A DNA stretch of 64,000 nt from Escherichia phage vB_EcoM_SQ17, in the sequence record MW882907. The stretch is one strand, 5' to 3'. The number at the start of each line of letters is the position of its first letter. Position 1 is the first letter of the stretch. The notes beneath the pieces were generated by a model. It had not been told where the DNA came from and searched no databases. It saw nothing but the letters and a program-made list of their open reading frames with translations. Below, one piece after another: positions 1-39,559 of the stretch. A program made the translations under genes and the position numbers.

Positions 1-2214
1 TTATTTGGCCGCTTCCACGGCCTTCATGAATTTAACGATTTGAGCGACCTGTTCTTTAGAAAGAGTACCACGTCGTCCCATGTATTCTGACACAATATGA
101 TAATTGGTTTCAAATTCAATAACCATTTTATCATCATTATCGTAAGCATTATCTTTAAGCTTATCGAAAATTTTAGCACACAATTCTAACTTCCTGTTCA
201 GTTCTCTGTTAGTAGCACCTGAGAATCGATTCCATCCCCAACGATTATTTACTGTTGAAAGTTTTGCAAAATCTTTACTGATTTCTTTGTTCTTAGAGCT
301 AAAATACTTACTAAGGAAGTTAAGCTCTTCATTACGAGTAATATGATTCAAATAAGGCTGTGCTCTACGACTTGGTGATACATACTCATCATAATCCACT
401 TTATCAATTAGCGTAATATAGTCATTAATTGATTTTTCGAACAAGCATTCTACTTCGCCAAGTTTACGAACTTTCTTAGCAATCTGTGGACGGACCACAG
501 TGAACTCTTTAATACCTGACAAATCAGCAATACGGGTCAAGAAATTGGAGTCATAGTTCAACCAACCTTTATCTGCGTCAAGACATTCAGCATTAGAACG
601 ATTACGAACTATAGCATAACCTTGGATTTCATCAGCTTCACTCGCTGGAATAAAGAGATCTTCTGATACCCAAACATCGTTTTCATTCTTAAAGAACCGA
701 TGAGCACTTGGGGATTTAGGACGAGGCCCATTAGAACGAGTTTTGACTTCAATCCATGGCTTAACGATTTGTAAAAGCTCTGAAGTCTTGTACATGTTAA
801 TGTTGTCGCCATCAAAGATAACTTTAAGGCGTTCCAGAAGTTTCATTGCATCTTCGTCTGTAGGGTCAACGAATAGTACGCTTTTACCAAAACCGCGTGG
901 AACTTTACCGGTTAATTTAACCTCGTCTTTAGACATTTCAATTGAATTAAGAGCTCGCATTAATGGAACACGTCCCTTAACGTCGTCAATAACAATTTCA
1001 ACGTTTTTAATATTGATGCCAATCAGACTGTTAATTGAAATAGTTGCAGATGAGCTACCACTTTCACGAATACGACGAAGACGAGGGTCTTCAATGATAT
1101 CGTATACGACGCCGAGATTACACCATTCGGGTCCCATTTTAAAACGTTTGTACAACTCAGAATAAGTTAGTTGTTCTTTAGAATATTTCAGAGATTCAAT
1201 ATTAGACCCAGCCTTTTCCATGTATTTACGAGCGGTATAGCCAAGAGAATCAATTTCACGGAACACATGACGCGGGTATTTACAATCAATCCATTTCTTA
1301 GAATCTTCAGCAAATAATTTTGCATCGATTTCTGCAACGCGTTTATGGATATTTGCTACTGTACGTTTATCAAATGACAATGCTTCACGAGACGGGGCTA
1401 CATCTAGTTCACCCATAGGGAATTTAATATAAGCTGTAGTGCATCGCGTCATCATCCATGTTTGTTCTTTAATAACACTTCCGATTGGATATACAATACC
1501 ACCATAAACAGCCATGATATTACCACGTTCACCCCATGGAGCTTCCTTGGCTAAATAAACATCATCGAATTCCGGGAAGTATTTGATATCTTTAACACCA
1601 CGAACTTCTGCAATATCGCCGAGAGGACGCATAACATAAGCAATTTCGGATGCGAACTTTTCAAAATCTTCTGGGTTAACTGGTACAACTACTTCTACAC
1701 CCGTACGGTCATCAGGACCCATCTTATCTACGAAGGTTGGCTTAATCTGTGGACCGCTGTCATCTTGATAAATTACATAACCACGAACTTCACCATTGTG
1801 ATAAGACGTAAGGTTAAACGTATCGGTATATGCTAGTGGAGCTTTAGAGCCGAGTCCGAATCCACCAATGAAATCGTTACTCGATGTTTTAGTTGAAGCA
1901 AAATATGAGTTATAAATTCCTGGCTCTTCGTCATTACCTCGAATGGTGAAATCACTCATACCAGGACCAAAGTCTCGAACTACAAAACGTGGGTCTAAAC
2001 GACCTGGAGCCTGAACAATAAACTTATCAGTGCAACCATTAAGAATTTGACCATCGATACAGTTTGTGATTAATTCACGTACACAAGCCAATTCTTTGTT
2101 TGTATAAAGGTCATTAGACAAAATCTTATAAACTTTGCTATTGCCTTGAATAGTAAATGCTGTGCTCTTACCGCCTGAACCAATAATCGTTTCTTTAGCC
2201 GTTTCAATAATCAT
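1..2214 (-). CDS. rIIA: rIIA protein (GHKL/Bergerat-fold ATPase-like N-terminus)
   Basis: 737 aa; translation aligns along its length with remembered T4 rIIA (MIITTEKETILGNGSK..., ...GGFGLGSK...); TAA stop at 1-3, ATG at 2212-2214; followed by rIIA.1-like ORF and gene 39 as in T4. Confidence 0.9.
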   Translation of the reverse strand: MIIETAKETIIGSGGKSTAFTIQGNSKVYKILSNDLYTNKELACVRELITNCIDGQILNGCTDKFIVQAPGRLDPRFVVRDFGPGMSDFTIRGNDEEPGIYNSYFASTKTSSNDFIGGFGLGSKAPLAYTDTFNLTSYHNGEVRGYVIYQDDSGPQIKPTFVDKMGPDDRTGVEVVVPVNPEDFEKFASEIAYVMRPLGDIAEVRGVKDIKYFPEFDDVYLAKEAPWGERGNIMAVYGGIVYPIGSVIKEQTWMMTRCTTAYIKFPMGELDVAPSREALSFDKRTVANIHKRVAEIDAKLFAEDSKKWIDCKYPRHVFREIDSLGYTARKYMEKAGSNIESLKYSKEQLTYSELYKRFKMGPEWCNLGVVYDIIEDPRLRRIRESGSSSATISINSLIGINIKNVEIVIDDVKGRVPLMRALNSIEMSKDEVKLTGKVPRGFGKSVLFVDPTDEDAMKLLERLKVIFDGDNINMYKTSELLQIVKPWIEVKTRSNGPRPKSPSAHRFFKNENDVWVSEDLFIPASEADEIQGYAIVRNRSNAECLDADKGWLNYDSNFLTRIADLSGIKEFTVVRPQIAKKVRKLGEVECLFEKSINDYITLIDKVDYDEYVSPSRRAQPYLNHITRNEELNFLSKYFSSKNKEISKDFAKLSTVNNRWGWNRFSGATNRELNRKLELCAKIFDKLKDNAYDNDDKMVIEFETNYHIVSEYMGRRGTLSKEQVAQIVKFMKAVEAAK

Positions 2215-2226
2215 ATTTTTCTCTCA

Positions 2227-2427
2227 TCACAAGTTACGTTTAAAAATTTCTGCTACTTCAAGAAGTTCTTCTTTAGTAGCTGTATCGGTTTGTATTTTAT
2301 ATCGAATTTCTTTAAAGCGTTCTTTAAAGGACTCTGCTGACTCGATATCAAAAAATCTTTGGATAAGCCGGAATTCCCGGAGCACAGCTTTATCAAAAAG
2401 TTCCAAGTCCACGTTATATGTTCTCAT
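2227..2427 (-). CDS. small conserved protein, rIIA.1-like by position
   Basis: 66 aa ORF immediately downstream of rIIA on the same strand; size and position match T4 rIIA.1. Confidence 0.45.
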   Translation of the reverse strand: MRTYNVDLELFDKAVLREFRLIQRFFDIESAESFKERFKEIRYKIQTDTATKEELLEVAEIFKRNL

Positions 2428-2519
2428 AATATTCTCTTCAGTAGATTCCTAGGGCACTATTACTAAAGACCATATAATCCATCATCTTATGTGTAATAGT
2501 ACCTCAGGCTATTCAGGAT

Positions 2520-3620
2520 TTACGCTGTGAAGATTTTATCCCACATCGCAACAACTGCATCTCGGTTATACTTCTTCCATACTGCTTCAGCACGTTTAAC
2601 TCGAGCTTCGTATGTGTCGGTGAATTCTAATACAGCTTTTGTGTAAAGCGCAACTACTTCTTTCTTAGGAGTAGAGGAATCAATTTCTACACGCACAGTA
2701 TCTGGGTCGTATTCGAATGTCGCATGAGGATAATCCTTAAAAACTAACTGGATTACAGGGACACCTTTAGAGATGGCTTCAATAGAACTATTCTCTACTG
2801 TACCTGTGTCAGGACATGTATTAATAAGTGCTTTAGCTGTTTTAAGACGTTCCATGATTTCACTGTGTGGAGCATCAATAATAACAGGATATTTAGCTGG
2901 TGGGGCCCATTTACTAGGACAGTATCCTACACCATTTTCGCCTAGTGCTTTAATAGCTTCAAGAGCAACATCAGTACGACGCATTTTAGTGTCATAACGT
3001 TGTGCACTAATAATCAGATCAGTCGCCGGGAGAACTTCAGGTTTCTCATTCAAACAAATAACCGGATAATCTTCGGCTTCAAACAAAGGATTTGCTCGCC
3101 AATAATCATAATCAATTTTGTCAGTCAGAGCTGAAGTCATATGGCAATATTTACGTTCAAATTCACGGAAGGCTTTAGTAGGAGCATAACTCTTACCACC
3201 ATTCTTATGAATTTGAATAGTCTGGTCCCAAATTTGAACAATGCCACGAGATACCGGTTCAAATGGTGTTGCCATAAAATTCTTATGAACTTTAGAGAGA
3301 CCTGCGTCTTTAATTGCCTGAACGGTTAGTTTAGTCGGTTCCATAGTAACAACAAAATCGTATTCATGGATGCCGGCTAGTTCAACAATCTTACGAGCCA
3401 TAGTATAACTCATACCTAGACTGAATTTAGTCAGATGACCAACAGGATGGTGTGTAACTTTCCAGTCACCAAACGTGTCATTATCAAAGCCGATATAATC
3501 AATATCAGCACCGATGGACACAAGATATTTTAACACATTTAAATGTACTGCTTCAAGGCCACCTTGTACACGGTCAGGATTAAATGGGACTGCACGAGAT
3601 GGGATAAACATAACTTTCAT
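2520..3620 (-). CDS. GT-B fold glycosyltransferase; candidate hydroxymethylcytosine-DNA arabinosyltransferase
   Basis: 366 aa; N-terminus MKVMFIPSRAVPFNPDRVQGGLEAVHLNVLKYL resembles GT4-type N-terminal nucleotide-sugar fold; C-terminal TGTVENSSIEAISKGVPVI resembles the GT4 ExxxxxxxE region; sits where T4 carries gene 60/mobA; transferase substrate is inference. Confidence 0.6.
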   Translation of the reverse strand: MKVMFIPSRAVPFNPDRVQGGLEAVHLNVLKYLVSIGADIDYIGFDNDTFGDWKVTHHPVGHLTKFSLGMSYTMARKIVELAGIHEYDFVVTMEPTKLTVQAIKDAGLSKVHKNFMATPFEPVSRGIVQIWDQTIQIHKNGGKSYAPTKAFREFERKYCHMTSALTDKIDYDYWRANPLFEAEDYPVICLNEKPEVLPATDLIISAQRYDTKMRRTDVALEAIKALGENGVGYCPSKWAPPAKYPVIIDAPHSEIMERLKTAKALINTCPDTGTVENSSIEAISKGVPVIQLVFKDYPHATFEYDPDTVRVEIDSSTPKKEVVALYTKAVLEFTDTYEARVKRAEAVWKKYNRDAVVAMWDKIFTA

Positions 3621-3629
3621 AATTAAGCC

Positions 3630-3665
3630 TTATTAAAATTAAAATGAAGCTCCCGAAGGAGCTTA
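3630..3665 (-). terminator. putative rho-independent terminator (hairpin AAGCTCC-TTCG-GGAGCTT, then U-rich tract on minus strand)
   Basis: inverted repeat at 3646-3664 read on minus strand, followed by cattttaatttt; overlaps stop of the HNH gene. Confidence 0.4.
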
Positions 3666-4475
3666 GGACATCCAACACATTTTATAACCTTTGCAGGTTC
3701 TATTAGGATTATTTAATGCTTTCAATATATTAGAAGACCCTATATCTAAATACTCCCTTAATTCATAAAGATAGTTAAAATCAATAGTTTCGCCTGTTTT
3801 TACACTTGTGATTCTTATAGGCCTTCTTTCATATTTAGATTTATACAACTCTCTAGTCTTGGCTTTAGTTTCTTCTGACCTAGGAGTGTATGGTTTAAAT
3901 CCTTTTGTTTTAAATGTTTCCATTCTTGATTTAGTTATTTTATCCTGGTGTTCTTTTGTTTTTACAGGTGCTTTTCGCCCATTCTCCCAAGATAACTTGT
4001 TGGCCTGTATTATTTTATCTATTGCTTCTTGCGTATGAGTTTTACCATAAAATGGATTTAATTCGCCTATACGTTGTGAAGCAATATGTGACATTAATTC
4101 TCTTGTTGCTTTAGTATGTTTTTTACCTTTAAACGGGTTGCCATTTTTAGCAATCCATTCTTTCATAAATCTAGAGTGCTCTTTAGAGAATTCTTGTTTA
4201 AGCCAATCATAATCTCTAGAATTTCTAGCTCCCATGTAAAAAGCTCTAATAGCCATAAGCATAGAACGGTTCTTATGAATTTTATAAAGCAATAAATGGG
4301 CGATAAAATGCTCTCTAGGGGTCATTTTAACTAGATTTGATTTAGCATTACTCCCGCCCATAGATTTAGGCAAAATATGGTGAGTTTCAGTATAATTAGG
4401 AATAATGCTGCGGTTTTTAGCCGCAGCGATAAGTTTATCATAAATTTTACGGTAATTCATTATCCTAGCATCCAA
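3663..4475 (-). CDS. HNH homing endonuclease, Mob-like, free-standing
   Basis: 270 aa; HHILPKSMGGSNAKSNLVKMTPREHFIAHLLL is a typical HNH core; lies between the glycosyltransferase and gene 39 where T4 has mobA; true start may be the internal ATG at 4458-4460. Confidence 0.75.
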   Translation of the reverse strand: MDARIMNYRKIYDKLIAAAKNRSIIPNYTETHHILPKSMGGSNAKSNLVKMTPREHFIAHLLLYKIHKNRSMLMAIRAFYMGARNSRDYDWLKQEFSKEHSRFMKEWIAKNGNPFKGKKHTKATRELMSHIASQRIGELNPFYGKTHTQEAIDKIIQANKLSWENGRKAPVKTKEHQDKITKSRMETFKTKGFKPYTPRSEETKAKTRELYKSKYERRPIRITSVKTGETIDFNYLYELREYLDIGSSNILKALNNPNRTCKGYKMCWMS

Positions 4476-6280
4476 TCTTTACGGAGTTCAGGGTCGTTAC
4501 CCATGAGCATTTCAAATAGTTCTTTCCAATTTTCAGGAAGTTTAACTACGTCGTACACAGGGTTTTGAATCATTTCTTTATATTCATCCCGCTGAAGTGA
4601 GCCCAATCCCTTGATGTATCGAATACTATGCTTAGGCAGTGTATCTTTAGCTTCTTCATACTCAGCTACAGTATAAAACCATTTTTGAGTTTTGCCAATT
4701 TGTGCAATAATTACAGGCGTTTTAACAAAGCGAATACGTCCTTGTTCAAACAATTCAGGCCAATTACTAAAGAAAGCAAGCAAAGCCGGGTAAATACTTC
4801 CAAGACCATCATGATCGGCATCGGTCATAATTGCAATATTACGATAGTTCGTATTCTCAGCCTTTTCACCAAGAATAAGACCTGTGATAGCACAGATATC
4901 AAAGAGCTCTTTGTTCTTCATCATATCAGCATATGACATACCCCAGCTATTCATCACCTTACCACGTAATGGGAATCCGCCGTGTAGTTCACGGTCACGA
5001 ACATCAATGAGATAACCAATTGCCGAATCACCTTCTGTTAAAAACAATGTCGTATCTGCATCTTTACCGCATTGGTTAGCTTTAATATGCTTATGAACCT
5101 TAGCTTTAGTTGCCTTTTTAGCTGCTTTAGTTTCTGCAGCCTTTTCTGCCGCCAATTTACGAGCTAATGCTGCTTCAACAATAGGCATAATCAAGGCTTC
5201 GTTTTTAAGAAGTGCCTGAGCAATTTTCTTAGCATCTAATTGGATATGATTACGAATATCACCATACGTCGACGTTAAACGTTCTTTAGTCTGAGAATCA
5301 AAACGCATGTTGCTCATGTCTCTAATAAACATCAACATTGTGAGGCATTCTTTAACACGAGCTTTAGTGACTTCAATACCCTTATATTTCTTTTTAATGC
5401 CGGGCAAAAGATGTTCGCAGATATCATCCATTACACATTCAACATGATGACCACCATTTTTAGTATGAATGTTATTCACATAAGTTAAATGACGGAAGCC
5501 GTCTGGTGATGTTGTGAATGCTATAGAGACTTTATCATTTTCTTGAATGATGTTATCTTCGCCAAATTGTTTAGCAAATCGTTTAAAATTACCATCAACC
5601 TTTTTACCATTAAATGTGAACTTGATATCAGGATAAACGACTGCCAATGTTTGAAGTCGGTCCAAAGTAATATCTAAATAAATTTGAGATAAATTATGCT
5701 CTTCAAATGAAGAGAAATCAGGAGTGAAGATTACTTTAGTGCCTTTACCTTTAGATTTCTTAGAAGACCATGATTTGTTTTCCATTCCGTTTGAACAGTT
5801 AACAGTGATTTCATTTTCGCCATCTGATGTGATGCCTGTAAACAACGTAGAGAAGATATTAGTTAAACTACTCCCGACGCCGTTCATACCACCGGTCTTA
5901 CGTTCAGAGTCATCACCAAAGTTACCACCGGCCTTTGGAATAGTCCAGGCAGCTACAGGACCTGGAATCTGTTCACCATTTTGGTCGGTGACCATTGCTT
6001 GAGGAATACCACGTCCGTTATCTTCAACAGAAACTTGATTATTTTTAATTTGCACATCAATTTTATTTGCAAACTTAAATGATGTACGAATAGCTTCATC
6101 AACCGAGTTGTCAATAATCTCATCGATTAATTTAACCAGACCAGGAACATATTCAACTTGTTGATATTTACCAAACAAAAAACGCTCGTGGGCTTCTTTA
6201 GCAGAAGAACCAATATACATACCACTACGTTTCTTAATATGTTCTACATCCGACAATACCTTAATTTCATTTTTAATCAT
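4460..6280 (-). CDS. 39: DNA topoisomerase II large subunit (GyrB-like), uninterrupted 39+60 fusion
   Basis: 606 aa; N-terminal KKRSGMYIGS GyrB signature, GHKL ATPase region, Toprim FLTEGDSAIGYL; length equals T4 gp39 plus gp60 without the bypass element. Confidence 0.9.
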   Translation of the reverse strand: MIKNEIKVLSDVEHIKKRSGMYIGSSAKEAHERFLFGKYQQVEYVPGLVKLIDEIIDNSVDEAIRTSFKFANKIDVQIKNNQVSVEDNGRGIPQAMVTDQNGEQIPGPVAAWTIPKAGGNFGDDSERKTGGMNGVGSSLTNIFSTLFTGITSDGENEITVNCSNGMENKSWSSKKSKGKGTKVIFTPDFSSFEEHNLSQIYLDITLDRLQTLAVVYPDIKFTFNGKKVDGNFKRFAKQFGEDNIIQENDKVSIAFTTSPDGFRHLTYVNNIHTKNGGHHVECVMDDICEHLLPGIKKKYKGIEVTKARVKECLTMLMFIRDMSNMRFDSQTKERLTSTYGDIRNHIQLDAKKIAQALLKNEALIMPIVEAALARKLAAEKAAETKAAKKATKAKVHKHIKANQCGKDADTTLFLTEGDSAIGYLIDVRDRELHGGFPLRGKVMNSWGMSYADMMKNKELFDICAITGLILGEKAENTNYRNIAIMTDADHDGLGSIYPALLAFFSNWPELFEQGRIRFVKTPVIIAQIGKTQKWFYTVAEYEEAKDTLPKHSIRYIKGLGSLQRDEYKEMIQNPVYDVVKLPENWKELFEMLMGNDPELRKDWMLG

Positions 6281-36779: not shown

Positions 36780-38468
36780 TTATGAAACAGTCATTACAGT
36801 AAATCGTCCAACTTTGCTCATTTGAAGATGTTGTCCATAAGCTTGTGGGTCATGGTCTCTGTGACTAATTATAAACACGTTTGCATCGGTTAGAGAGTTA
36901 AGAATTGTTGAAATAGCTTTAATACCTTCAGAATCAGTCGCGGAATCCATGACTTCGTCCATAATTAATGTATTGATTCTAACACCAGAGACCTTTTCAG
37001 CAATATCTCGCCATGTAAACAACAATGCGATATCGATACGCGCTTTTTCGCCTTGACTAAATGAAGCATAACTGAACTCTTCACGGCCACGTGATTTTAT
37101 AGATTCATTGAATTCTTCATCAATAGAAAACACGTAATCAGCTTCCATGATTTTAAGATAATGGTTAATCTGCTTGTTGAACAGAGGCACATATTTTTTA
37201 ATGATAGCACCTTTAATACCAGAATCTTTTAACATATCTGTGATAATACCACGATGGTATTTTTCAAGAACGATATCAGATTTTGTTTTAATGATTTTAT
37301 CAAGTTCTTTTTGAAGCAAAGCTATCTCATCGGCATGGTCGATAAATTCCGCTGAGGCTTGTTCTATTGCAGCTTTAACTTTCTTAGCTTTATCAATAGT
37401 GGCAATCATTGCTTGTTTCTTGGTACGAATATCAGATGCAAGGTCCTGTTTAGTCTTAACATTAGCTCTATATTCGTCCACTAGGACACTCAGATTATCT
37501 CTGTGACATGTAAGTTGCTCGAATGAGTGATTACATTCGTGAAGCTTATCGGTAATCTTAGAGACAATAGGATCACCCTGGTGCAACTGTGATGCACAAG
37601 TAGGACATGTGCCACCGTCATGATACATCTTAATAACTTTGTTATATGAGTCGATTTTAGATTTAATCAAGAATGCTTCTTGTCCGATCTTGTTGAATGC
37701 CTCAGTAGGGTCTTCATCAAGAACGATATTAAGTAGACGCTCGTTAGCTTCTTCGATTTCTGCTTTTAATGAACGAGCTTCTTTGGCTAGGTCGTCATAC
37801 ATATTCTGTAGACGCGCTACATTATCACCAGATAATTTCTTTTGACGTTCGATATTCTCGTTATAAATCTTAATTTGTTGGATAATACCATCTTTCTTGG
37901 CGTCGAGAACTTGTCCCTGGGAATTAAGTTCTCGAACTTGAGACTTATTGATTTTATCCATTTCAGCGAGTGTGCCGACTTCTAAAAGGTCTTCGACAAG
38001 TTTTCTACGAGCAGGGGTGCTAAGAGCCATGAAAGGGGTATACCCTGCCGTCCCAAGCACAACGATTTGTTTAAAAGACGCGTATGACATTCCGATGCTA
38101 CGTTCAAATTCTTCTTGGAAGTCACGACTGCTGGCAGATTCATCGAGACGAACACCGTCAACGGAGATTTCGAAAATATTGGGCTTTTGGCCACGTTTAA
38201 TGAAGTATTTTTTACCATCGAATTCCATCCAAAGCTCAACTAAGAGCTCTTTCTTGTTCGTGCTATTAATGATTTGCCCTTTCTTAACATCACGAAATGG
38301 TTTACCGAAAAGTCCGAAAGTAATGGCTTCTAACATCGTAGATTTACCACCACCATTTTTACCTGTGATTAAGGTCTTTTGGACTTTATCTAATTGGATA
38401 TCGATAAAATTTTGCCCAACAGACATTATATTTTTATAACGAACACGATTTAATTTAAATGTTTTCAC
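36780..38468 (-). CDS. 46: recombination endonuclease subunit (Rad50/SbcC-like ATPase)
   Basis: 562 aa; Walker A GKNGGGKST, coiled-coil middle with CPTC zinc hook, C-terminal signature and Walker B LIMDEV. Confidence 0.9.
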   Translation of the reverse strand: MKTFKLNRVRYKNIMSVGQNFIDIQLDKVQKTLITGKNGGGKSTMLEAITFGLFGKPFRDVKKGQIINSTNKKELLVELWMEFDGKKYFIKRGQKPNIFEISVDGVRLDESASSRDFQEEFERSIGMSYASFKQIVVLGTAGYTPFMALSTPARRKLVEDLLEVGTLAEMDKINKSQVRELNSQGQVLDAKKDGIIQQIKIYNENIERQKKLSGDNVARLQNMYDDLAKEARSLKAEIEEANERLLNIVLDEDPTEAFNKIGQEAFLIKSKIDSYNKVIKMYHDGGTCPTCASQLHQGDPIVSKITDKLHECNHSFEQLTCHRDNLSVLVDEYRANVKTKQDLASDIRTKKQAMIATIDKAKKVKAAIEQASAEFIDHADEIALLQKELDKIIKTKSDIVLEKYHRGIITDMLKDSGIKGAIIKKYVPLFNKQINHYLKIMEADYVFSIDEEFNESIKSRGREEFSYASFSQGEKARIDIALLFTWRDIAEKVSGVRINTLIMDEVMDSATDSEGIKAISTILNSLTDANVFIISHRDHDPQAYGQHLQMSKVGRFTVMTVS

Positions 38469-39330
38469 TTAAATTTTTCCTCATGAATTCAGAAACTAAA
38501 GCCTGTAAAGAACTTTGTATAGGATATCCTAAATTGACTAAATTTTTAGAAAAAGTCACATATTTAGGTTTGTTCATTTTAACCCATTCAACGTAAAGCA
38601 TATCAAAATTTTCCCAATGATATCCTTTTCTTCTAGATTTCAAATGAGTGTCTCTAACTTTAGGATTTTTCCAACTGCGTGAAACTCCAGCCGATAATGA
38701 TTCTCTATATTCGGCTGTTTTAGATATTTTACGACAAGCATCCAAATGTTTTTGTTTATTAATAGGGTCACTAAACCACTTTTGGGTCATAATAGAGACG
38801 GTTTCTTTAAATTCCTTTGAACTTGTCATAATTCTGTGTTTCTTTAAATTTTCCGGATTTTTAAACCATGCTTTTAAAGCTTGACTAATCTTAATTCTAT
38901 TATCCTGATTGGAATAGTATAATGTCATTTTTATAGAATTAACTTTACAAACATTTTCGAATTCTAAAGAATACACCTCGGCTATATTATTTAGTTCATG
39001 CGTTGTACAATTTAAATTAAATCGCCCGGTATACATTCTTTGAAGCGCGTTAATCATCTTGTGGTTGCCAGTTTTTGCCAAAATGCTATGTGCAATAAAA
39101 TGGTTATAATGACTTAAATGACACAAGTTCCATTTACATGTTTTAAAATCTGGAAAAATAGATTTTGGTAGTATATGGTGAACCTGAGTCAGTCCTTTTA
39201 CTTTATTAGTGGAATTAGTTTTTATAAAGTTTAAATACTCATCAAGTCCTTCCCACGAAGGGAAGGAGGTTTTAAGAATTTTATAAATTTGAGTTTCATA
39301 ATCAGTCTTCGTCATTATACGCGTCCTCAA
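38455..39330 (-). CDS. HNH homing endonuclease with NUMOD-like repeats, inserted between genes 47 and 46
   Basis: 291 aa; VHHILPKSIF ... NHFIAHSILA HNH core; repeated basic modules (KNPENLKKH, KWFSDPINKQKH, SWKNPKVRDTH). Confidence 0.75.
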   Translation of the reverse strand: MRTRIMTKTDYETQIYKILKTSFPSWEGLDEYLNFIKTNSTNKVKGLTQVHHILPKSIFPDFKTCKWNLCHLSHYNHFIAHSILAKTGNHKMINALQRMYTGRFNLNCTTHELNNIAEVYSLEFENVCKVNSIKMTLYYSNQDNRIKISQALKAWFKNPENLKKHRIMTSSKEFKETVSIMTQKWFSDPINKQKHLDACRKISKTAEYRESLSAGVSRSWKNPKVRDTHLKSRRKGYHWENFDMLYVEWVKMNKPKYVTFSKNLVNLGYPIQSSLQALVSEFMRKNLSENI

Positions 39331-39559
39331 TACATGCTTCAGCCATTTTAAGAATAGAGCCAGGAGTATCGTTGTCCATTATATTAAAGCTAAATTCAAT
39401 AGCCCAGTCGGTGCAGACATGAACTGCTTTAACTTCATTGCCTTCAACGCGTAATGGCTCAATCCAATACTTGATAGTGTTCTCGAATCCATCATCGTCT
39501 TTAACGTCCATTTCAACTTCAAGTCGAAGCCCAGCATTATTAAATTCATCTAAAGTCAT
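39302..39559 (-). CDS. hypothetical protein
   Basis: 85 aa acidic ORF between gene 47 and the HNH gene. Confidence 0.45.
   Translation of the reverse strand: MTLDEFNNAGLRLEVEMDVKDDDGFENTIKYWIEPLRVEGNEVKAVHVCTDWAIEFSFNIMDNDTPGSILKMAEACIEDAYNDED

Follow-up and report, generated by a model that had tools for sequence, protein, structure and literature searches.

The 64,000-nucleotide (nt) stretch of the genome of Escherichia phage vB_EcoM_SQ17 (MW882907) that we analysed, hereinafter the window, contains, next to the essential gene for the large subunit of DNA topoisomerase II (gene 39), a minus-strand open reading frame (ORF; 3663..4460, 265 amino acids (aa) plus stop) that, judging from the comparisons described here, is a real, intact and recently mobile free-standing homing endonuclease gene (HEG) of the Mob family of HNH nucleases. 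We assign a probability of about 0.8 to the reading that this HEG represents a lineage dedicated to the 3' end of gene 39 and homes in the manner proposed below. The element is not strictly intergenic, and gene 39 is still a full 606-aa ORF. The ORF, its Mob-like free-standing HNH character and its place between a presumptive glycosyltransferase gene and gene 39 had been recognized in an earlier note on this DNA and all stand, with gene 39 at 4460..6280 and the other neighbor, a homolog of RB69 ORF003c, at 2520..3620. The proposed extent, 3663-4475, has to be corrected because the start is almost certainly the ATG at 4460 rather than the TTG at 4475; of the overlaps that had been postulated for both the start and the stop, the former is genuine, whereas the stop (3663-3665) does not overlap ORF003c but is separated from it by a 42-nt spacer (3621..3662).

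The boundaries of the insertion became apparent when the window was aligned to relatives that lack the HEG, namely, ST0, JK45, RB69, pEK20 and the IMG/VR contig L013. In all these relatives, an 800-nt block (3669..4468, minus strand) is missing, and the record span is 3701 nt compared to 4501 nt in the HEG carriers. The block is bounded by a 6-nt direct repeat, TGGATG; the empty site has the sequence ..AAAGAATGGATGTCCTAAGCTCC (also given as ..CGTAAAGAATGGATGTCCTAAGCTCC) and the filled site, with junctions marked by slashes, the sequence ..AAAGATTGGATG/CTAGGATAATG..798-nt ORF..TGTTGGATG/TCCTAAGCTCC (also given as ..CGTAAAGATTGGATG/CTAGGATAATGAAT..(HEG)..TGTTGGATG/TCCTAAGCTCC). The left copy of the repeat (4469..4474, minus strand) comprises the W-M codons of gene 39, and the block is placed right after these (codon 604 of 606), four codons from the original stop. 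The cassette-borne sequence CTAGGATAA (4460..4468, minus strand) provides both a new gene-39 end (..DWM-LG*) and an AGGA Shine-Dalgarno-like motif for the HEG. The right copy, together with TCC TAA (3663..3674, minus strand), is the original end of gene 39 (WMS*; ST0 and JK45 end in ..GAATGGATGTCCTAA) and is now the end of the HEG, the frame of which exits through TGG ATG TCC TAA to yield ..CWMS* at the point where the HEG homologs finish with ..KWKY... The block supplies Leu-Gly-stop, and the HEG terminates on the former end of gene 39; in this way, the integrity of the essential gene is preserved. The terminator-like hairpin AAGCTCCTTCGGGAGCTT (3647..3664, minus strand), which in the empty-site phages comes after gene 39, here comes after the HEG, within the spacer that precedes ORF003c. 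A native gene 39 ending in ..WMLG* was sought as the source of the new end, and none was found among 56 T4-like loci, the sole HEG-free exception with this end being a footprint allele in the metagenomic contig L012 (see below). Thus, the site that had been considered intergenic lies within the last gene-39 codons, and the likely target is in the coding end of this gene.

Translation from the ATG at 4460 yields the N-terminus MNYRKIYDKLI.., which is common to T4 MobC, MobD and MobE and every homolog and conforms to the Mob-family pattern MNYxKIYxxLI; all database annotations take this start, and NRG-P0074 and fPS-90 carry identical boundaries. On the strength of this N-terminal homology and these annotations, the TTG start was discarded. 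The start codon and the gene-39 stop (TAA) have one base in common (TAATG).

Comparison with the T4 Mob proteins, which had been suggested as a check, supports the family assignment: blastp detects MobE (52.6% identity over aa 1-76, E 8e-25), MobD (37.9% over 169 aa, 5e-23) and MobC (29%, 6e-13), and tblastn detects the degenerate T4 mobA region (53% over aa 1-45, 1.6e-9). The PHROG 655 profile ('homing endonuclease') matches with E 1e-55. The HNH catalytic region (aa 24-56, TETHHILPKSMGGSNAKSNLVKMTPREHFIAHL; 4293..4391, minus strand), predicted to adopt the beta-beta-alpha fold, includes the motif TETHHILPKSMGGSNAKSNLVKMTPREHFIAH. Across 55 aligned sequences (the HEG product and 54 database homologs), N42, H51 and H55 are invariant, whereas H27, H28, P31, G35 and G36 are kept in at least 90%, producing an HH..N..H signature that aligns with the HNH motif of McrA. 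Two NUMOD3 DNA-binding repeats follow (aa ~109-151; 4008..4136, minus strand; Pfam PF07460, 36.5 bits against a cutoff of 20.4). The C-terminal region (aa 185-261; 3678..3908, minus strand), with two short strands and two helices in the model and a match to phrog_1310 (E 1.5e-4), is probably a further DNA-binding module; a homolog, L100, shows a weak match to PF22083 (I-HmuI_NUMOD-like) as well. NCBIfam yields sub-threshold matches only, to TIGR01453 (aa 109-253) and IscB, and a sequence search of the PDB recovers only McrA, with a marginal E of 0.41. In the AlphaFold2 model (mean predicted local distance difference test score 83), residues 25-62 form a strand-strand-helix unit (strands 25-28 and 43-46, helix 48-62), beyond which come a series of helices and, at the C-terminus, a small beta/alpha unit; Foldseek finds local matches to HNH domains, with I-HmuI (1U3E) at rank 18 as a weak, not significant match. 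Given the profile, blastp and alignment results, the family assignment rests on sequence, not on the fold search. The HEG has a lower GC content than gene 39 (32.2% vs 37.1%).

The distribution of the HEG is sporadic. With tblastn, its protein is found at 98.9% or greater aa identity in 27 GenBank records, which correspond to 21 phages, always directly after gene 39, and the next matches show at most 45% identity. A query with the junction region retrieved 159 records; after subtraction of eight Tequatrovirus records, there remained approximately 151 Mosigvirus-type records, not dereplicated, of which 19 carry the HEG. Approximately 130 Mosigvirus-type records lack it, with 97-98% identity in the flanks; in RB69, ST0 and most others, exactly the 800 nt are missing. 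Hence the insertion site, compared across relatives as the earlier note had recommended, is polymorphic rather than uniformly occupied. The HEG copies differ at 6-15 of the 798 nt, and nine of the 11 that were compared are intact 798-nt ORFs with all the catalytic residues.

The gene-39 flank of the carriers is distinct as well. The 332 nt that precede the junction contain 25 differences from RB69, and all but one of these are confined to two tracts, A (4565..4604, minus strand; 14 substitutions in 40 nt, QRDEYK for EKSEYR) and B (4475..4517, minus strand; 10 substitutions in 43 nt, MGNDPELRKDWM for MGDDSELRKEWM). At 97.9% identity or above, the A+B haplotype is present in 34 records, namely, the 27 records with the HEG, those of six HEG-less phages in which a 19-nt insert is retained (TH12, LF82-4, phiEC1, OLB35, TH58 and CCU7), and that of NHEP36, so that it is accompanied by the HEG or the insert in 33 of the 34; the remaining mosigviruses are at most 92.4% identical to it, mostly ~85%. 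Classic empty sites have the A-minus/B-minus haplotype, which agrees with other genera at the protein level. The 19-nt insert, CTTGGTTAATTGAT(G/A)GATG, encodes Leu-Gly-stop ahead of the repeat position; in contig L012, it is accompanied by tract B only. We read these footprints as HEG-loss alleles. Simple deletion of the present HEG allele was dropped as their origin because three extra substitutions would be required, and the footprint allele probably derives from an older HEG variant. A single site, then, appears to record the whole life cycle of a HEG: empty, invaded with a replaced gene end, frameshifted, reduced to a footprint, and carried into another genus.

The most noteworthy by-product of this analysis is that jump between genera. 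At least five Tequatrovirus genomes carry the HEG (fPS-90, FL12, F1, BYEP01 and CJY920), and FN is probably a sixth, its record coordinates being nearly equal to those of F1. Tequatroviruses are without ORF003c, and in their genomes, rIIA.1 comes after gene 39. By sliding identity, fPS-90 and FL12 have a gene 39 that matches a Tequatrovirus reference at 91-100% up to ~355-408 nt before the junction; past this switch point, these genomes are 97-100% identical to the window across the HEG and the hairpin and into ORF003c. After 48 nt of ORF003c (..AATCCTGACC), the Mosigvirus block stops and is joined, via the 6-nt microhomology CTGACC, to the resident gene-39 tail (GCTGACC/TTCGTAAAGAATGGATGAGCCAGTAG), which persists as a downstream remnant. 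This downstream joint is common to all five Tequatrovirus carriers examined, whereas the upstream switch points vary, at ~405, 360, 413, 405 and 160 nt, so that the Mosigvirus-type flanks that accompany the HEG in the five genomes extend ~160-415 nt upstream and 90 nt downstream. Over the stretch where the HEG copies are nearly identical, gene 39 is 64-83% identical between the two genera. This mosaic structure demonstrates transfer of the HEG, with co-converted flanks, between the two genera, and the ORF003c fragment sets its direction, from Mosigvirus to Tequatrovirus. The recipient has no homology at the downstream side, so this side would have been sealed by microhomology and the upstream side by homologous invasion. 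The pattern fits one entry from a Mosigvirus donor and subsequent homing or recombination within Tequatrovirus. RB69 has been stated to be unable to recombine with T4-type phages, and mosigviruses and tequatroviruses have been reported not to exchange DNA (PMC6024577). Evidently, DNA of mosigviruses, which carries arabinosyl-hydroxymethylcytosine (arabinosyl-hmC), does enter Tequatrovirus genomes in nature, which qualifies the view of RB69-type phages as genetically isolated. The earlier note had also envisaged that marker exclusion could spread the glycosyltransferase gene along with the HEG. This hitch-hiking we reject: ORF003c occurs in mosigviruses regardless of whether they carry the HEG and has no HEG-linked haplotype in the stretch compared, and in the documented cross-genus transfer it is truncated, only its first 48 nt having been carried over.

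More distant relatives occupy the same gene end. The three closest non-identical homologs, detected in a large protein database (P0002-P0004; 42-45% identity over the full length), each immediately follow a gene 39 of full length in other T4-like contigs. In one such contig, L096 (Logan SRR21291448; the HEG is 45% identical), there is an overlap between the HEG and the gene-39 stop, and a second copy of the gene-39 tail (CTTCGTAAAGAGTGGATGAATCAATAG) comes after the HEG, like the Tequatrovirus remnant; in another, L099, the HEG comes after the gene-39 terminator hairpin, and there is no remnant. Contig L096 also encodes a 235-aa Endonuclease_7 protein (1144..1851) directly upstream of gene 39, so that this gene 39 has nuclease genes on both sides.

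These observations suggest the following mechanism. In a mixed infection, the NUMOD3 and C-terminal modules of the HEG protein would mediate binding to the 3' region of gene 39 in a HEG-less phage, and the protein would nick or cut this region; the break would be mended by copying the HEG-carrying genome, and this repair would install the HEG together with the two diverged gene-39 patches, tracts A and B. These tracts, the insertion itself, or both could then protect the carrier from self-cleavage. Nuclease activity of the protein is a prediction. In three lineages, the remnants start no more than ~30 nt before the gene-39 end, and the shortest converted tract, in CJY920, reaches ~160 nt upstream; the cut position is therefore probably in the last ~160 nt, to which the search for the cleavage site is now narrowed. 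Tracts A and B are candidate target/immunity patches, comparable to the diverged 'homR' found in MobA elements. An 18-mer, CTTCGTAAAGAATGGATG, is common to the HEG-less Mosigvirus and Tequatrovirus alleles and differs at two positions in the carriers. Conceivably, the nuclease initiated the cross-genus transfer, and tracts A and B may act as immunity patches. A broader proposal, which we hold only tentatively and with less than even confidence, is that we are dealing with a self-protecting cassette: the HEG lineage would replace the 3' end of the essential topoisomerase gene, be active on hypermodified DNA of both the arabinosyl-hmC and the glucosyl-hmC kind and, in this way, have driven gene flow from Mosigvirus to Tequatrovirus.

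The HEG is probably read from gene-39 transcripts. The upstream sequence contains neither a MotA box nor an exact match to the T4 late promoter (TATAAATA), and sigma-70-like matches are no commoner than in shuffled sequence. The octamer TATAAAGA (4575-4582), one mismatch from TATAAATA, was considered as a late promoter and is treated as unsupported; it is created by the tract A change of GAATATCGTGAA to GAATATAAAGAA, on the minus strand ~115 nt upstream of the HEG start, perhaps by coincidence. The TAATG overlap could couple its translation to that of gene 39, with local RNA folding and an internal hairpin exerting a damping effect. Between -75 and +60 relative to the start, the RNA folds into a structure more stable than those of shuffled sequences (z = -3.0), with AGGA and AUG paired, and a stem-loop with a 7-bp stem (GCTGCGG-CTAAAAA-CCGCAGC; 4407..4427, minus strand), a candidate attenuator, is located 33 nt after the ATG, ahead of a U-rich stretch. 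T4 mobE, L096 and Thanatos-1 have hairpins in the corresponding position, with unrelated sequences, whereas no clear hairpin can be discerned in L099, L100, mobC or mobD. The T4 mobE gene is promoterless, co-transcribed with nrdA and has, 27 nt past the AUG, a hairpin tested as a weak terminator (PMC2790892).

Several observations weigh against the interpretation of this gene as an active homing endonuclease with adapted flanks. It does not pass a curated HNH profile, the score with Pfam HNH_4 being 17.9 bits, under the 22-bit cutoff, and the homolog L100 scores 20.2 bits with PF01844 against a cutoff of 21.4; the Mob-type HEG family sits at the edge of the Pfam HNH models. The nuclease could be inactive. 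Two HEG copies are frameshifted, those of AV118 (+1, stop at codon 117; the extra A falls in the A-run GGTAAAAAACAT, window ~4110..4120) and ECO111 5-P (-1, stop at codon 122), which could be either real decay or homopolymer sequencing errors. That the two are disrupted close together might reflect a mutational hot spot or a sequencing artefact. NHEP36 combines the A+B flank with a clean empty site and could be either a product of precise excision across the TGGATG repeat or a member of the naive lineage in which the HEG first landed, alternatives that the sequences cannot separate. Tracts A and B themselves could be an ordinary lineage haplotype that is merely hitch-hiking. The 18-mer CTTCGTAAAGAATGGATG is retained in the remnant of four of the five Tequatrovirus carriers, and for this reason was rejected as a sufficient target. 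Finally, the HEG copies are near-identical, so covariation cannot test the RNA structures described above.

If the nuclease is dead or never was site-specific, the HEG would be a passive passenger, spread by the ordinary homologous and illegitimate recombination of co-infecting T-even phages. These phages recombine at high frequency, general recombination could also give the microhomology joint by which the HEG entered Tequatrovirus, and two of the HEG copies are frameshifted. We nevertheless consider it unlikely: most of the copies compared are intact, with none of the catalytic residues replaced; the site is identical in 21 phages, and homologs with 42-45% identity occupy the same gene end in other phage groups; varied upstream crossovers behind one fixed downstream joint are predicted by repeated break-initiated conversion; and the MobE and MobA relatives are experimentally active (PMC2790892; bioRxiv 2022.08.31.505936). 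It is still less probable that the protein has been domesticated and is kept for a benefit to the phage, such as competitor exclusion, regulation of the gene 39/ORF003c region, or cutting of host or foreign DNA. Most close relatives, RB69 included, are without the HEG, its distribution is sporadic rather than clade-wide, and frameshifted and deleted alleles occur in otherwise viable isolates, even though the predicted coupling of its translation to that of an essential early gene, together with the RNA structure around its start, might indicate that the HEG is integrated into the expression program of the phage, and free-standing T4 HEGs cause marker exclusion and can benefit the carrier (PMC2988022). 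The least plausible scenario, in which the common ancestor had the HEG and every empty site is a deletion, can draw on the footprint alleles and one possible precise excision product, which show that loss occurs, and on the TGGATG repeat, which could mediate precise deletion, but is already contradicted by the Mosigvirus flanks of the Tequatrovirus carriers, including 48 nt of a gene that their genus lacks, as well as by the divergence of at most 2% among HEG copies compared to ~17-36% for host genes between genera and by the A-minus/B-minus classic empty sites with their protein-level match to other genera.

The preferred reading, that of a homing gene specialized for the end of gene 39, has clear parallels among known systems. 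One is T4 MobE, encoded between nrdA and nrdB, which shares with the HEG the N-terminal HNH domain (52.6% identity over 76 aa), a start that overlaps or abuts an upstream essential gene with no evident promoter of its own, a stem-loop ~30 nt after the start, which in mobE is a tested weak terminator (PMC2790892), and spread with flank co-conversion. The differences are that MobE is a protein of 141 aa, compared to 265 aa with two NUMOD3 repeats in the HEG, so that the C-terminal halves differ; that the locus and the target gene are different; that the HEG has been inserted into the end of the upstream gene, the stop codon of which it takes over; and that the HEG product is a putative nuclease. 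The element that includes MobA involves the same host gene, for the topoisomerase II large subunit, and the same protein family; it is inserted at D490/G491 of Topo2L and is characterized by the split of genes 39 and 60, a 50-nt bypass cassette and ~44-aa extensions (bioRxiv 2022.08.31.505936). Further points of likeness are that each element has its own diverged copy of the displaced host segment (cf. 'homR') and a short C-terminal extension of the upstream ORF and that each leaves 'hit-and-run' footprints. By contrast, the HEG is inserted at codon 604 of 606, gene 39 is unsplit, with TOPRIM_C extending to residue 603, the C-terminal extension consists of two codons (Leu-Gly-stop) rather than ~44 aa, and the element is 800 nt compared to ~1100 nt; at the HEG locus, there is no gene-60 ORF downstream, coding gap, bypass cassette or N-terminal extension. 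The unsplit gene 39, the lack of a bypass cassette and the insertion at codon 604 rule out the possibility that the HEG is a MobA element. In Shewanella phage Thanatos-1 (L006, 1469..4326), the topoisomerase large subunit gene is split (1469..3004, 4075..4326) around the 270-aa Mob-like HNH protein TH1_110, which is 30.9% identical to the HEG product over the full length. This is a MobA-type arrangement, and the phage also has a pentose cytosine modification.

With I-HmuI, the intron-encoded nicking HNH enzyme of Bacillus phage SPO1 (1U3E), the HEG product shares an N-terminal HNH unit, NUMOD-type helices and a C-terminal module; in contrast to I-HmuI, the HEG is not intron-encoded, and neither a significant sequence match to 1U3E nor a significant structural one was obtained. 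Indeed, the HEG is in neither an intron nor an intein but between gene 39 and ORF003c/rIIA.1, with the gene order otherwise conserved. T4 SegF and SegG, which bring about localized marker exclusion, are, likewise, products of free-standing genes adjacent to a conserved gene, and their action, a break in the allele that lacks the HEG followed by repair with marker co-conversion (PMC2988022), would by analogy apply here as well. The SegF and SegG nucleases have the GIY-YIG rather than the HNH fold, and their cleavage sites have been mapped, whereas for the HEG only a region is proposed. The locus is a site that has not been described for T4 itself, and the family is already known. Several GenBank records label the HEG 'homing endonuclease', and, as ORF 117 of phiC120, it was mentioned once without analysis (PMC8022965).

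The minus-strand gene order around the insertion is gene 39, HEG, a 366-aa ORF, rIIA.1 and rIIA. The insertion host, gene 39, is a fused 39+60 gene for the topoisomerase II large subunit that was identified by its ORF and by Pfam and PHROG matches (PHROG 543, 'DNA topoisomerase II large subunit', E 5e-287). The 366-aa ORF, the downstream neighbor, lies outside the mobile block; it has no match among the Pfam and NCBIfam profiles, and its coordinates equal those of RB69 ORF003c, a putative arabinosyl-hmC transferase (Thomas et al. 2018, PMC6024577), so that the label 'glycosyltransferase' given to it earlier is reasonable. It is followed by rIIA.1 (2227..2427, minus strand) and rIIA (1..2214, minus strand), the window starting at the rIIA end of an RB69-like (Mosigvirus) genome; its closest DNA match is Shigella phage phi25-307 (98.4%). 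The coordinates through ORF003c (1..3620) are equal in the window and RB69 AY303349, with the HEG as the first indel, from which it follows that the window opens at the conventional Mosigvirus genome start.

Additional ORFs, some of them apparently related to homing endonucleases, were noticed in the course of these comparisons. In AV118 (L003, 4778..5185), an extra 135-aa ORF that overlaps the gene-39 start contains three NUMOD3 repeats and no nuclease domain, and is probably what remains of a further homing endonuclease located at the gene-39 5' end; AV109, AV114, AV115 and AV116 have the same longer span as AV118 and so probably possess this ORF as well. In JK45 (L002, 1021..1431), there is an extra 136-aa ORF, with no Pfam match, between rIIA.1 and ORF003c; JK45 is classified as a Tequatrovirus, yet this region, including ORF003c, is 97.5% identical to that of mosigviruses. 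Finally, the window contains a second Mob-like HNH ORF of ~286 aa (38455..39315, minus strand), with the sequence ..VHHILPKS..WNLCHLSHYNHFIAH.. and a C-terminus (YHWENFDMLYVEWVKMNKPKY..LGYP) that resembles that of T4 MobD. It shows 40.7% identity to the HEG product over aa 24-80 (tblastn, E 2e-6) and is located two ORFs downstream of a 339-aa ORF, which we take to be gp47, with an 85-aa ORF (39302..39559) in between.

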